Shown here piece by piece: positions 26,696 through 35,823 of a stretch of 64,000 nucleotides of DNA. A model generated the notes under the pieces. It worked only from the letters and a program-made list of their open reading frames with translations. It had not been told where the DNA came from and made no database searches. The stretch is taken from NCBI RefSeq assembly GCF_057098645.1, contig NZ_CM169472.1; one strand, 5' to 3'. The position numbers were made by a program, and so were the translations under genes. Position 1 is the first letter of the stretch. Each line of letters opens with the position of its first letter.

Positions 26696-26888
26696 TATTC
26701 CCCTCTCCAGTTAATTATTGAGAATAATTATTACTTCACCTGATAAGCTGCGGATATCACATTCCTAACCGCAGCTATTTGTGAATCTTTTCACAGTTTA
26801 AATTCCCCCGCACGCTTAGCCTTAATATCAGTACATTATTATTTACTAAACGCTCGCCTTAATTACCTATAGCATTAAGGAAGATCAC

Positions 26889-29598: not shown

Positions 29599-30609
29599 TC
29601 ACTTCTTACGCGCGTACTTCAGTGAATCCAGCGCTACGGCGAAGATAATAATCGCCCCTTTGATGATGTACTGCCAGTATGGGTTTACGCCGATATACGT
29701 CAGGCCATAGTTGATGACGGTAAAAATAATTACCCCGGTCACCACGCCAATCACCGTCCCCACACCGCCGCTGAACGATACACCGCCTACCACGCACGCC
29801 GCGATAGCATCCAGTTCATACATAAAGCCGAGGTTGTTGGTGGCAGAGCCGATACGTCCGGCTTCTAACATCCCGCCAAAGGCATAGAACACGCCAGACA
29901 ACGCGTAGATCATCAGCAGGTTCAGGCCGACGTTGACACCAGATACTTTTGCCGCTTCCGGGTTACCGCCAATGGCAAAAATGTTCTTACCGAAGCGGGT
30001 TTTGTTCCACAACACCCAGACGAACGCCACCGCAATCAACGCGTAGAAGGTGATGTAAGAGAGACGGAAACTCCCCAGCGCGACAAAGCCCTGAGCAAAG
30101 GTAGAGAAGCCACTGTCAAAACCAGAAATTGGCGACGCCCCGACAAAGTCGTAATAGAGCGAGTTGATGCCATAGACGATGATCATCGTGCCGAGCGTGG
30201 TAATGAACGGCGTCACGTTGAGATAAGCGATAATCAGACCGTTGATCAAACCGATCACCGCACCAATGGCACAGACAATCAGAATAACCAGCGCAATCGG
30301 CATCGTCGCCATTTCCGGGAACACTTTGTTGGCGTTATCCATGGACTGCAATAACGTCGCCGCTACTACTGCCGCCAGCCCCACCTGGCGACCTGCAGAA
30401 AGGTCGGTCCCCTGGGTGACAATTAACCCTGCCACGCCGAGCGCGATAATAATACGCACCGATGACTGGGTGAGAATATTACTTAAGTTCAACAGACTTA
30501 AAAATGTTGGGTCCTGGAAAATAATAATCGCCAGCAAAACTAAAAGAACGACGTAAATACCGCCCTCTTTCAGGTAAGTAAGAAAACTTTTCTTATTTAA
30601 CGCACTCAT
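29599..30609 (-). CDS. mglC: Galactose/methyl-galactoside ABC transporter permease
   Basis: 336-aa polytopic permease, last gene of mglBAC. Confidence 0.9.
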   Translation of the reverse strand: MSALNKKSFLTYLKEGGIYVVLLVLLAIIIFQDPTFLSLLNLSNILTQSSVRIIIALGVAGLIVTQGTDLSAGRQVGLAAVVAATLLQSMDNANKVFPEMATMPIALVILIVCAIGAVIGLINGLIIAYLNVTPFITTLGTMIIVYGINSLYYDFVGASPISGFDSGFSTFAQGFVALGSFRLSYITFYALIAVAFVWVLWNKTRFGKNIFAIGGNPEAAKVSGVNVGLNLLMIYALSGVFYAFGGMLEAGRIGSATNNLGFMYELDAIAACVVGGVSFSGGVGTVIGVVTGVIIFTVINYGLTYIGVNPYWQYIIKGAIIIFAVALDSLKYARKK

Positions 30610-30624
30610 GGGAAGCCCCTAATC

Positions 30625-32145
30625 TTAAAGGTGCAAAGACGCAAGACGCAGAATTTCGTTTTGCGTTGTTGTTTTTGTATCGACAATTCCGGAAACGAGA
30701 CCATTGCTCATGACCAGAATACGGTCTGTTATCCCTAACAACTCAGGCATTTCAGAGGAGATAATAATAATCCCCTTGCCTTTCTTCGCCAGTTCGGCAA
30801 TTAACTGATAGATCTCAAACTTCGCCCCGACATCAATACCGCGCGTCGGTTCATCGAGCATTAATATTTCTGGTTGCGTTAGTAGCCAGCGACCAATAAT
30901 CACCTTTTGCTGATTACCACCGGAGAGCGAACCAATTTGCGTCCGATGACCCGGCGTTTTTACCCGCATCGAATCAATCACCCACTGGGTATCGCTTTTC
31001 ATCCGCGAGTTATCCAGTAAACCAACTTTATTTTTGTAGTTGCGAATATTGGAAATTAACGAGTTAAAACCGATATCCAGATAGGCATAAATTCCCGTTG
31101 AGCGGCGCTCCTCAGTTACCAGTGCAAATCCGTGGTTTATGGCTTCGTTGGCATTATGGTTATTGATCTTTTTGCCGTGCAACGTAATTGTGCCAGCCGA
31201 TTTCTCGCGAATACCAAATAACGTCTCAACAATATCGGTACGTTTCGCCCCCACCAGACCGGCAATACCGAGGATCTCCCCTTTATGCAGATCAAACGAG
31301 ACATCGCGAATCGACGGCTGGCGCAGTGACGTCAGGTTACGCACCTCGAGGATGACTTCGCCCGGCTTGTTTTCTTTGTCAGGAAAACGCTGGTTAAGAG
31401 AACGCCCAACCATCATGGCGATAATCTTGTCCATCGTCAGCCCTGCCAGCGGTTCGGTGGCGATCCACTGACCGTCGCGCAATACGGTAACTTCATCACA
31501 TAACTGGAAGATTTCTTCCATTTTATGCGAGATATAAACAATACCGCAGCCGCGCTCTTTTAATTTACGAATAATAGTGAACAGATGATTGACCTCTTTT
31601 TCGGTTAACGAAGAAGTCGGTTCATCCATAATCACAATTTTCGCGTTATAGGAAAACGCTTTGGCGATTTCGATCATCTGCATTTGCGAAACAGATAATG
31701 TGCCGACGCGCGCACGCGGATCGATATCAATATCCAGTTCATCAAAAATCGCTTTGGTTTCGCGGTACATTTTGTCCTGGTCGACAAACATGCCTTTGGT
31801 GGGGTATCGCCCAAGCCACATGTTGTCCATCACCGAACGTTGTAATACCAGGTTTAACTCCTGGTGTACCATCGAAATACCATTTTCCAGTGCTTCTTTG
31901 GCCGAATGGAAATCGATCTCTTTACCCTGGAATAAAATGGTGCCGGAGTCTTTTTGATAAATACCAAACAGGCATTTTAATAATGTTGATTTTCCTGCGC
32001 CGTTTTCCCCCATTAATGCATGGATAGAATGTGGCCGGACTTTTAAATTAACGTTATCAAGTGCCTTAACACCAGGAAAAGACTTGTTGATACCGCTCAT
32101 TTCCAACAAGTATTCCCCGGAAGACGGAGTCGTTGAGCTGACCAT
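30625..32145 (-). CDS. mglA: Galactose/methyl-galactoside ABC transporter ATP-binding protein
   Basis: Duplicated ABC ATPase with Walker [13 protein letters not shown] and two ABC signatures. Confidence 0.92.
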
Positions 32146-32205: not shown

Positions 32206-33204
32206 TTATTTCTTGCTAAATTCAGCCAGGTTGTCTTTATCTACGCCAACATAAGGTACGCGGACCACTTTGTTGTCGATTTTCCAGTTGGTGCCATCAG
32301 CCGCACCTTTACCATCGGCCAAGTTTTTCGCCAGATCAAAGGTCGCTTTCGCCTGGTTGTTAGCATCGTTCAGTACGGTGCCCGCCAGTGCACCGGATTT
32401 CACCAGCGCCAGCGCTTCTGGCAGAGCATCGACGCCAAACACCGGAATGCTGGACTTGTTGTGTGCTTTCAGTGCTTCTACCGCGCCCATTGCCATCGCA
32501 TCGTTGTTGGCGATAACCACTTCGATTTTGTTGGCGTTCGGGCCAGACAGCCAGGCGTCCATCTTATCTTTCGCCTGAGCGGTATCCCACATAGCGGTAT
32601 CTAACTGTAACTGTTCAGTTTTGATGCCTTTATCGTTCAATTCTTTAATCACGTAAGTGGTACGTGCTTCTGCATCCGGATGGCCCGGTTCACCTTTCAG
32701 CAGTACGAACTGAATCTGACCGTCTTTGTTCAGATCCCAACCCTGATTCGCCGCCCAGTGTTTAGCAATCAAATCGCCCTGAATAATGCCGGACTCTTTG
32801 GAGTCAGTGCCAACGTAGTAGGCTTTGTCGTAGCTATCCAGCGCCTTACGAGACGGTTCTTTGTTGAAGAAAACCACCGGCACGTTTTGCCCACGCGCTT
32901 TCTCAATCACCGTACCCGCAGCTGCCGGGTCAACCAGGTTGATTGCCAGTGCCTTCACCCCTTTCGCCAGCAATACGTCGATCTGATCGTTCTGCTTGGA
33001 CTGGTCATTCTGAGAATCATTCATCAGCAGCTGAACATCTGGCGCGGCTTTCGCATCTTGCTCAATAGCCTTGCGCACTACAGACATAAAGTTATCGTCG
33101 TACTTATAGATTGTTACACCAATGCGAGTTTCAGCAGCGTGTGCAGCGGCACCGAATAACATGCTGGCCATCACAGCAGACAGGGTTAACACCTTCTTAT
33201 TCAT
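32206..33204 (-). CDS. mglB: D-galactose/D-glucose periplasmic binding protein
   Basis: 332 aa with signal peptide [23 protein letters not shown]. Confidence 0.92.
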
Positions 33205-33455
33205 GGTATCTCCGGTTTTTCTTATGCAGGGTAGTGCTTGAGATAAATGCTCGGCGGGGCAGTAGAGTTAATGAAGTGTTACTGAACGCCGAAGCTCACT
33301 TTTTAAAATTCGTTCTTCCATGCCCGGTAACGCTCCAGAAAACGGCTTTAATTGTTGTTGTGACGCTATTACCTCGGTGAAAGTGATTATTCACTGTTAC
33401 ATACGGGTTACAACGTTAAAACGGTGCAATCATAGCTATCACATTGTTAAGATAC

Positions 33456-33471
33456 TGTGAAATCACTCACA
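33456..33471. promoter_or_regulatory. CRP binding site in the mglBAC promoter region
   Basis: TGTGAaatcacTCACA is a near-perfect match to the CRP consensus TGTGA-N6-TCACA, upstream of mglB and abutting a gal-operator-like sequence at the galS 3' end. Confidence 0.55.
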
Positions 33472-33483
33472 GATTGAAAGCGG

Positions 33484-34524
33484 TTACATCGCCTGATTTG
33501 TTGAGTTAGTGATCGCCGCCGCATTCTGGCGTGTTGCGACAGAATGGCGACGCACTAACGTCGGCATAAAACAGTGGCTGGCACGAGGATCAATATTGCC
33601 TGCTGCCCCCTGCAAGGCCAGTTCGGTGGCTAATTTCGCCATTGAAGCAATGGGATAACGCACGGTCGTTAATTGCGGGTCGGTGTAACGGGCGATGGGA
33701 ATATCATCGAAACCGATGATTGAGAGATGTAACGGAATCGCAATGCCATTATCTTTTAATGCTGTCAGTGCGCCAGCAGCCATATTGTCGTTATAAGCAA
33801 ATACAGCGGTAAGTTGTAGATTGCGCCCCAGCAGTTCAACCATCGCCGCCTCACCGCCCGGCATGTCCGGCGTACCAGTGCCAATCCAGCTTTCCGGCGG
33901 AATAATATCCTGCTCTTTCAACGCACTCATCCAGCCTGCTTTACGCATGGCGTCATCTTCAATGCCGTGGCTGGAAGAAAGATAACCAATACGTTGATGA
34001 CCGTTATTCAGCAACATGCGCGTCGCCATTCTGGCACCGCTGAGATTATCCAGGCAAACGCAACGATGGGCGTACCCCGGCACAATGCGGTTGATTAACA
34101 CCATACCGGGAATGTTATCCATAAATTGCGCCAGTTCATCGTCACTCAATGCTTTTGAGTGAACAATCAACGCATTACAACGCTGGCGAATTAACACCTC
34201 AATGGCGTGACGCTCTTTTTCCGCTTCATGATAGCTATTGCCGATTAGCACGTATTTCTGATGCTGCTGAGCGACCAGATCCACCGCTTTTACCAGCGCG
34301 CCGAAAAACGCATCAGAAACGTCCATCACCACCACGCCAATGGTGTCGCTAACCTGAGTTGCCAGCGCCTGGGCATTGGCGTTTGGCCGATAATCCAGCT
34401 CACTCACGGCTTTCATTACTGCTTCACGCGTGTCGGCACTGACCAGCGTGCTGTTATTGAGCACCCGGGAAACCGTTGCCACAGAGACGCCAGCCTGACG
34501 CGCTACATCACGAATGGTGATCAT
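33484..34524 (-). CDS. galS: LacI-family galactose isorepressor
   Basis: N-terminal [26 protein letters not shown] (346 aa from this ATG). Confidence 0.9.
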
Positions 34525-34665
34525 ATTCACTACCTGTTATGAGATTGCAGTAAATGACTGCTTGCTGGCGGCTATTTTGTCAGCACTGAATACAGGACTT
34601 CGTGAATCGAGTCACAGCAATGGAAACGGTTACAGCCGTTTTGTTAACGAATGTGATCCAGATCG

Positions 34666-35823
34666 TTATCTTGATGTTTTAGATATTGCCGGTCCGGCAG
34701 CACGCAAAGTTAACTGACGCCAGAGCCATTCCACCGGCCCCTGGCGGAAGTAACGCAGCCAGATAACAGAGAAGAGAATATTCGCCAGCCATACCGGAAT
34801 AACAAACGCCAGCAATTCCAGACGGTCAAACTGCATAAACAAACCGAGGTGATAAAAAAGCGTGGTACAAATCAGCGTTTGCAATAGATAGTTGGTCAGC
34901 GCCATCCGTCCGACGCAGGCGATCGCCAGCACCAGCTTAAAGCGGCTCAATTGCGGCCAGAAACCATAAAACAGCGACGCATAGCCAATCGCCTGAAACG
35001 GTGCACTCAGTTCCCGCGGCATCTGAAGTAAGAAGGCGCACCAGCGATATGCCCAGTCCAGCCGCCATTGCAGGGCGATGGCAGGAAGGTTAATGATCAC
35101 CCCAATCGCCACCAGCACAAAACCAGTACGACGATAGTGACGTAAGCTGAACTGCCCTTTCAGCCAGCCACTGCGCATCAATGCGGCACCAATGAGCATC
35201 ATCCCAGCCAGTTGCCAGCCATACTGTGCGCCCAGTGCCAATAAACTGTTCCCAACACCATCGGCACGATTACTGATCGCTTCAACGCCGCCGTGAAGCT
35301 TCCAGTATTTTTCATACAAAATAGCCGATGCATCCGGCGTCCAGGCGCGGCTGGTCTCGCTGTCGGAAATCAGCCCCAATAACAGCAAAACGCCAAGCCC
35401 CACCAGATAAAGCATGACGCCTGTATTAAACAGGCTTTTTACCGATGGCGCATCGCGCACCAGCCGCCAGCAGATTAAGCCCACCAGCCCGTAAGCCAGC
35501 AGAATATCGCCGTCCCAGAACAATAAACCGTGAATAAAGCCCAGCAAGACTAACAGCGTTAACCGCGACTGGATCCAGCGTCTGCCACGGGGCAGCAACA
35601 TTTGCAGGCCAGCACCAAACAGCAGCGCAAAAAGCGTGAGGAATTTCACCTGGCCGATGAGATCGAGAAATGCCCAGGTCCATGCATCCTGCGGCGTAAT
35701 AGCGCCGTACCAGGCGGGATTAAGATAAGCCGCCTTTGGTAGCCCAAAGGCGCTGATGTTTAATAGCAGGATCCCCAGAATGGCGACGCCGCGAACAAAA
35801 TCGAGCGTGACGTTGCGCTCCAT
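34666..35823 (-). CDS. yeiB: DUF418-family inner membrane protein
   Basis: 385-aa polytopic membrane protein upstream of folE on the same strand. Confidence 0.8.
   Translation of the reverse strand: MERNVTLDFVRGVAILGILLLNISAFGLPKAAYLNPAWYGAITPQDAWTWAFLDLIGQVKFLTLFALLFGAGLQMLLPRGRRWIQSRLTLLVLLGFIHGLLFWDGDILLAYGLVGLICWRLVRDAPSVKSLFNTGVMLYLVGLGVLLLLGLISDSETSRAWTPDASAILYEKYWKLHGGVEAISNRADGVGNSLLALGAQYGWQLAGMMLIGAALMRSGWLKGQFSLRHYRRTGFVLVAIGVIINLPAIALQWRLDWAYRWCAFLLQMPRELSAPFQAIGYASLFYGFWPQLSRFKLVLAIACVGRMALTNYLLQTLICTTLFYHLGLFMQFDRLELLAFVIPVWLANILFSVIWLRYFRQGPVEWLWRQLTLRAAGPAISKTSR

Follow-up and report, generated by a model that had tools for sequence, protein, structure and literature searches.

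The 64-kb stretch of DNA that we analysed (hereafter the window) carries a series of genes that all lie on the minus strand, in the order mglC (29599-30609), mglA (30625-32145), mglB (32206..33204) and galS (33484..34524), then yeiB and folE. The mglB gene, which is the first gene of mglBAC, a galactose/glucose transporter operon, codes for a periplasmic galactose/glucose-binding protein of 332 amino acids. The galS gene (b2151 in K-12, 2240628-2241668) codes for a LacI/GalR-family isorepressor of 346 amino acids, and its open reading frame ends ...NQAM* with the TAA stop codon at 33486-33484 on the minus strand. E. coli is the source of the window, as a 1.2-kb query around the galS-mglB boundary matches 5425 of the 5426 complete E. 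coli genomes, with O145 strains giving the best matches at 99.9% identity. Annotations in 5425 of the 5426 genomes likewise assign galS and mglB to these positions, and the gene names galS and mglBAC used in the initial annotation of this DNA are therefore right. Window coordinates are converted to K-12 coordinates (NC_000913.3) by adding 2,207,144.

The mglBp/mglO locus is already known, and it is curated and experimentally supported. The window holds the same locus as K-12 mglBp, and its operator is the GalR ChIP site described there (Hogg 1991; Weickert and Adhya 1993; Notley-McRobb and Ferenci 1999, cited in PMC5110547, PMC2763269, PMC7863352). What we describe below on the motifs, on how they are arranged and conserved, and on the restricted distribution of the galS overlap comes from our own analysis, and the transcription start, GalR occupancy and in vivo function are taken from the literature, in which the start-site, ChIP and mutation data derive from K-12 derivatives.

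Promoter and operator elements between galS and mglB

Upstream of mglB is a CRP site whose core reads TGTGAGTGATTTCACA on the minus strand and spans 33456..33471, where the initial annotation had proposed such a site; the plus strand reads TGTGAAATCACTCACA exactly there. The core is perfect, matching TGTGA-N6-TCACA at 10 of 10 core positions, and exact copies of this pattern occur twice in the 64-kb window, compared to 0.04 expected from shuffled sequences. The full 22-bp site extends from 33453 to 33474, such that it has 1 bp in common with an adjacent GalS/GalR operator at 33474-33489. The distance from the CRP core to this operator is only 2 nt.

The operator, mglO, has the sequence ATGTAACCGCTTTCAA (33474..33489, minus strand) and forms a 16-bp dyad. 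The sequence originally pointed out, gtaaccgctttcaat, is indeed the reverse complement of 33473-33487, but the description of it as an operator half-site was too modest, since the minus strand carries at 33489-33474 the whole hyphenated dyad composed of ATGTAACC and GCTTTCAA. This complete operator departs from the consensus GTGNAANCGNTTNCAC at two positions, 1 and 16, and it agrees with the dyad GTGNAANC.GNTTNCAC at positions 3 (G), 5 (A), 9 (G) and 15 (A), which are the genetically critical ones (PMC5110547). As had also been claimed, the operator runs into the last codons of galS: its positions 1-6, ATG TAA, are Met346 and the stop codon at 33486-33484.

On its own, a consensus match of this quality is not above chance, as five matches with two or fewer mismatches occur in the 64 kb and 3.39 are expected. 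Four of the five, however, fall within the 2.3-kb galS-mglB region. These are mglO at 33474, a match inside mglB (32388-32403), one internal to galS (34467-34482) and one upstream of galS (34620-34635), and all four appear in published lists of GalR operators; those at 33474, 34467 and 34620 also figure among sites that were derived from GalR ChIP-chip data (PMC5110547). The significance of mglO therefore goes beyond its consensus match, given the CRP core located 2 nt away, the clustering of published GalR operators in the galS-mglB region, and the near-total conservation of the operator in all loci that we compared (see below).

The start of mglBAC transcription has been mapped in K-12 (Kim et al. 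2012) to NC_000913.2 position 2238588, giving an untranslated region of 218 nt (PMC3415461 supplement). In the window this start corresponds to a G at 33422 on the minus strand, and the upstream sequence reported by these authors, CTGTGAGTGATTTCACAGTATCTTAACAATGTGATAGCTATGATTGCACCG (-50..+1), is identical to that of the window. Relative to this +1, the CRP core occupies -49..-34 with its centre at -41.5, and the operator occupies -67..-52 with its centre at -59.5. The published start is thus not distant from the CRP site, but lies 41.5 bp downstream of its centre (Kim et al. 2012, PMC3415461). The galS stop codon maps to -64..-62, inside the operator, and the proposal that the 3' end of galS sits inside the promoter regulated by its own product holds when judged against the published start.

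Upstream of +1 is a -10 hexamer, TATGAT (33429..33434, minus strand; -12..-7), which retains 99.6% identity across species. There is no recognisable -35 element, as the sequence at 17-bp spacing, CAGTAT, matches at only one of six positions. A generic scan of the window for two-hexamer sigma-70 promoters made no call at the mglB promoter, a miss that is expected of an activator-dependent promoter lacking a -35 element. Collectively, the CRP core, its centre at -41.5 from the K-12 start, and a good -10 element without a -35 element fit the pattern of a class II CRP-dependent sigma-70 promoter. Another sigma-70-like match, TTGTAA-16-AATAAT at 33413-33386, was set aside because it coincides with none of the mapped 5' ends (Kim et al. 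2012, PMC3415461). The same map does include a second 5' end at +79 (33344), with nine reads compared to six at +1 (PMC3415461). By these read counts, some mglB transcripts owe their 5' end to processing at +79 or to a downstream promoter.

Published experiments bear directly on both protein-binding sites. GalR occupies the operator in vivo, with a ChIP-chip peak at K-12 2240625 and an inferred site, TTGAAAGCGGTTACA, at K-12 2240618-2240633, which is about 33474-33489 in the window (PMC5110547). In glucose-limited chemostats, a G-to-T operator mutation at NC_000913.2 2,238,647 recurs and sweeps, and it renders mglBAC expression semi-constitutive. Conversion between the two K-12 sequence versions (.2 to.3; offset 1978) places this mutation at window position 33481, which is the critical operator position 9 and lies 3 bp past the end of galS. 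A second selected mutation, at 2,238,630 (.2), is described as residing in the CRP activator site, and it does map inside that site (33464). The selected mutations at both operator and CRP site up-regulate mglBAC under glucose limitation. GalR ChIP-chip and adaptive mutations thus show that the operator and the CRP site both work in vivo. Furthermore, mglBAC is one of the gal-regulon operons that are controlled by cAMP-CRP and show no transcription in vitro without regulators (PMC4073488).

The overlap with galS can also be read from these published data, since the operator at K-12 2240618-2240633 intersects the galS coding sequence at 2240628-2241668, and it is implied by the published description of the operator mutation as lying '3 bp from the end of mglD'.

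Conservation of the regulatory sites and probable history of the galS stop codon

We compared 81 Enterobacteriaceae loci, comprising 80 species-level mglB loci that we fetched and the window itself, and in each we located the mglB start codon, the first in-frame galS stop codon, the CRP core and the operator. The CRP core has no mismatches in any of the 81 loci, the operator reads ATGTAACCGnTTyCAA in all 81, and the offset from the start of the operator to the CRP site is 18 bp in every one. Per-column identity to the window sequence, computed over the 80 aligned sequences, is 100% for the CRP half-sites and 95.8% for the operator. Only position 10 of the operator, which is an N in the consensus, varies (36%), and the other 15 of its 16 positions are at least 96% identical. 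The flanking segments are far less constrained: identity is 77% over the last ~70 nt of conserved galS coding sequence, 47% over the Escherichia-specific tail codons (33490-33504), 58% from -6 to +10, and 62% over leader positions +11..+69. To judge from these alignments, the pattern is a textbook phylogenetic footprint of a control region bound by two proteins. The invariant spacing suggests, in addition, that a geometric requirement may operate here, whether CRP is excluded sterically or the repressor makes a fixed contact with CRP or RNA polymerase. The conservation does not depend on galS itself, as Yersinia pestis is without galS and yet retains a highly similar mglBAC regulatory region (PMC3119520).

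In contrast to the regulatory sites, the galS stop codon wanders. The stop codon overlaps the operator by 6 bp (a gap of -6) in only 6 of the 81 loci, namely the window, four other Escherichia and Cedecea sulfonylureivorans. The two elements abut in Cedecea davisae (gap 0), and 9, 11 or 12 nt separate them in 73 loci; in the one remaining locus the galS frame is disrupted. In most genera GalS ends in ...ITN*, ...ITNL* or ...ITNS*. The Escherichia protein instead ends in ...ITN-STNQAM*, encoded in the same number of bases, with SANHAM and STNQTM in other Escherichia species, and the last six residues, STNQAM, constitute an extension specific to Escherichia.

The simplest history consistent with this distribution is that the ancestral galS stop codon was lost in the Escherichia lineage. 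The reading frame would then have run on for five to six codons to the next in-frame stop, which happens to be the TAA of the invariant TGTAAC operator half-site. The promoter motifs supply stop codons in all three frames, through the TAA of the operator, the TGA of the CRP site (TGTGA) and the TAA of CTTAAC at -27..-25. The overlap would thereby be a by-product of stop-codon loss and of tight gene packing, with galS located immediately upstream and co-oriented. Because the operator is just as invariant in loci where it lies outside the galS coding sequence, it is the operator that constrains the galS tail and not the reverse. On this comparative evidence, the overlap appears to be a recent, lineage-specific accident rather than a conserved design.

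The mglB leader

The 5' untranslated region of mglB (33205..33421, minus strand; 218 nt with +1) contains a GGAG Shine-Dalgarno sequence at 33213-33210. The window strain carries a few leader substitutions relative to K-12, for example around +45..+65, and its promoter is no different. Within the leader, a near-invariant block with the consensus TATGTAACGGTGATTAATCACTTT extends from about +20 to +44 (33403-33379), and this block holds another copy of ATGTAAC as well as a GTGA-N4-TCAC palindrome.

A search against Rfam covering 32900-34900 gave no matches at E<=1. The E. coli sequence from +1 to +75 folds as a long hairpin (-16.3 kcal/mol, z about -2.6), and a conserved RNA structure in this segment was rejected after RNAalifold returned no consensus structure for 78 species. 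A candidate upstream open reading frame of 17 codons (ATG at 33321, MEERILKSELRRSVTLH, preceded by GGAG) was likewise discarded. Its ATG occurs in Escherichia only and reads ACG, AAG or ACA in 76 of 80 sequences, and neither frame nor length is kept.

An abundant 3' end recorded by Term-seq at K-12 2240498 corresponds to 33354 (+69) in the window, with a Rho score of 0.44 ('No') and an intrinsic-terminator score of 1.47 (<3) (PMC7815308). Because the authors' scores support neither Rho-dependent nor intrinsic termination at this end, processing is its probable origin. The leader is also a probable target of the small RNA Spot 42, which represses mglB by base pairing in Salmonella, as demonstrated with compensatory mutations (PMC5207318). 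We noted a candidate Spot 42 site, UACCCUGC (33233-33226), that can pair with nucleotides 1-8 of Spot 42 (K-12 sequence) and lies within an invariant stretch a short way ahead of the Shine-Dalgarno sequence. The duplex predicted between full-length Spot 42 and the leader (-50.4) is no better than those of shuffled sequences (-48.4 +/- 5.0) and is uninformative. There is a small chance that the +69 leader RNA, the +20..+44 block and galS read-through transcripts together form an undescribed regulatory element of mglBAC.

Models for repression and the role of the galS overlap

Taken together, these observations make it very probable that we are dealing with the canonical control region of mglBAC, consisting of a CRP-dependent class II promoter, a single abutting operator and an incidental overlap with galS. 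In such a system, cAMP-CRP bound at -41.5 would recruit RNA polymerase to a sigma-70 promoter that lacks a -35 element. When galactose is absent, GalS (mainly) or GalR would occupy the operator and prevent CRP-dependent initiation. Galactose would release the repressor and permit transcription from 33422 to yield the 218-nt leader, on which Spot 42 and Hfq may add post-transcriptional repression. For the repression step itself, we infer steric or anti-activation interference with CRP or RNA polymerase in preference to looping. According to a secondary citation, GalS acts to 'prevent open complex formation'.

The arrangement has a close parallel in galETKM P1, where a 16-bp GalR/GalS operator likewise directly precedes a class II CRP site (-41.5). 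The gal sequence consists of the operator OE, 3 nt, and then a 16-bp CRP core, and 5391 E. coli genomes carry it at 100% identity. The gal operator OE is located at -60.5 (PMC5110547), whereas mglO is at -59.5, with a spacer of 2 nt and not 3, and the CRP core of mgl is perfect where that of gal is poor. Moreover, mgl differs from galETKM in being without an overlapping second promoter (P2) and without an established internal operator or HU-dependent loop. GalR/GalS operators within coding sequence are found elsewhere and involve the same double use of nucleotides as codons and as a binding site. Those operators, however, reside in the 5' coding region of the regulated gene itself, whereas mglO shares only 6 bp with the 3' end of the regulator gene that precedes the operon.

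The placement of mglO also recalls lacI and O3, where the gene for a LacI-family repressor is situated upstream of, and co-oriented with, its target operon and carries its own operator at its 3' end. LacI bound at O3 acts as a roadblock that gives rise to truncated lacI mRNA and SsrA-tagged protein (PMC3711431), and by this precedent GalS or GalR at mglO might block galS transcription to give a stop-less, tmRNA-tagged product and a similar form of autoregulation. The geometry is suitable, since the operator covers the stop codon, and a polymerase stalled at the repressor would leave it untranscribed. In other genera, where 9-12 nt separate the two, a stalled polymerase might still halt before the stop codon. 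Furthermore, a search of the minus strand from the galS stop codon to the mgl promoter gave no intrinsic terminator, and transcription of galS must therefore continue into the operator.

Other observations lead us to consider a roadblock unlikely. Term-seq tables covering three growth conditions assign no 3' end to galS (non-stop mRNAs are unstable), and galS already has operators of its own, upstream of the gene and within it. The restriction of the overlap to Escherichia and one Cedecea, and the fast evolution of the tail it encodes, argue against selection on the overlap. The overlapping site of mgl differs from lac O3 in being the sole, primary operator and not an auxiliary partner in a loop, and in overlapping the gene in certain lineages only. 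Dimeric GalS or GalR acting at a single mgl operator would not be expected to benefit from stabilisation by a loop of the O1-O3 type.

Still less likely, in our estimation, is that repression proceeds by looping between mglO and a second operator, in the manner of OE and OI of galETK. Potential partners are the match inside mglB, a leader half-site at about +21, and the galS operators about 1 kb upstream. The three consensus matches among these are indeed listed as GalR operators or 3C partners, but the ChIP-chip table gives one inferred site for mglB (PMC5110547). The leader partner corresponds to the conserved ATGTAAC copy; this, however, is only a half-site that on inspection departs from the 16-mer at six positions. 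Strong derepression follows from a single point mutation in mglO, which also speaks against a looped complex. GalS is not known to form tetramers, and we count this against looping as well.

Finally, the notion that both motifs match by chance, or that they act on galS (at its 3' end, for instance) and not on mglBAC, can draw on an operator consensus no rarer than chance and on a table in the GalR paper that, from coordinate overlap, labels the operator 'OE (galS)' or galS/b2151 (PMC5110547), but it is effectively refuted by the rarity of a perfect CRP core, the invariance of motifs and spacing in 81 of 81 loci, a start exactly 41.5 bp downstream, ChIP occupancy, mutations at both sites that raise mglBAC expression, and the retention of the sites in Yersinia pestis.

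Given that the mglBAC promoter, its CRP site and mglO are already curated, our observations carry little weight as a discovery. If a roadblock does operate at mglO, GalS synthesis would be tied to the occupancy of the mgl operator, and galS would be a second LacI-family repressor gene with a roadblock in the style of lacI and O3. Our small addition concerns evolution. Across Enterobacteriaceae the operator and CRP site are frozen, as is their 18-bp spacing, while the galS stop codon wanders, which makes this locus a clean example of a regulatory site that dictates the C-terminus of a neighbouring protein.

Conserved sequences in the mgl promoter and leader

The mglB leader contains a block on the minus strand, consensus TATGTAACGGTGATTAATCACTTT, which occupies positions 33379-33403 of the window (+20 to +44 relative to the mglB start site). 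Across 78 species, this block is near-invariant compared to an identity of approximately 60% in the surrounding sequence, and it carries both an additional ATGTAAC copy of the GalS/GalR operator half-site and a GTGA-N4-TCAC palindrome. Consensus-structure prediction on the same 78 species revealed no conserved RNA fold for the block, and an Rfam search covering it (32900-34900, E<=1) returned no matches. The block may function as DNA bound by a regulator, or it may act at the level of RNA.

A second near-invariant sequence, CTTAACAAT (33443-33451, minus strand; -29 to -21), follows the CRP site and precedes the -10 hexamer. It is almost unchanged across species, and yet it does not correspond to a recognised promoter element at such spacing. 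The TTAACA within it resembles a -35 element, but only 10 bp separate this hexamer from the -10.

Further downstream, an invariant block directly upstream of the mglB Shine-Dalgarno sequence contains UACCCUGC (33226-33233, minus strand), which is complementary to nucleotides 1-8 of Spot 42 when one G-U pair is included. Spot 42 represses mglB in Salmonella (PMC5207318), and UACCCUGC is likely the site through which that repression is exerted. The leader also holds a 17-codon ORF, MEERILKSELRRSVTLH (33321-33268, minus strand), with GGAG located 11 nucleotides upstream. This ORF is specific to Escherichia, and a conserved uORF was ruled out at this location, as ACG, AAG or ACA replaces the start codon in 76 of the 80 sequences from other species.

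RNA ends within the leader

Term-seq data include an abundant RNA 3′ end (92,000 reads) at position 33354 on the minus strand, or +69 of the leader, which is neither Rho-dependent nor intrinsic (PMC7815308). Only 10 nucleotides downstream, a published transcription start site map places a 5′ end at 33344 on the same strand, or +79 (PMC3415461). Together, these two ends suggest either endonucleolytic processing within AACAAC/AAUUAAAGCC or the presence of a stable leader RNA of about 69 nucleotides. The 3′ end also resides 130 nucleotides beyond the galS stop codon, and galS mRNA could likewise terminate there.

Variant loci in Citrobacter amalonaticus

Two Citrobacter amalonaticus loci depart from the common arrangement. 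In strain S646 (L023:2040-2501), an insertion of approximately 194 bp extends the mglB leader to 412 nucleotides, versus 218 nucleotides in the window, and we presume that the inserted sequence (GGTGAGCGAGCGCAGTCAACGCACCTGTAAGTTGAAGTATGACGAG) is akin to an ERIC/IRU repeat. In strain AUH_CA_2023_1 (locus L010), the galS frame is broken about 350 nucleotides before the operator by a frame change followed by a premature stop, and this interruption reflects either a galS pseudogene or a frameshift introduced during assembly.

Additional GalR/GalS and CRP matches

Three further matches to the operator consensus were found: ATGGAAACGGTTACAG upstream of galS (34620-34635), GGGAAACCGTTGCCAC within galS (34467-34482) and GTGCACCGGATTTCAC within mglB (32388-32403). 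All three appear in a published list of GalR operators, and the first two are also among the sites inferred from ChIP-chip in that work (PMC5110547).

Besides the mgl core, the window contains a single perfect CRP core, TGTGAATCTTTTCACA, at 26780-26795 (K-12 2233924-2233939) in the yeiS-preT intergenic region. The preT start lies approximately 94 bp downstream, and this candidate CRP site may serve the preTA (dihydropyrimidine dehydrogenase) operon.
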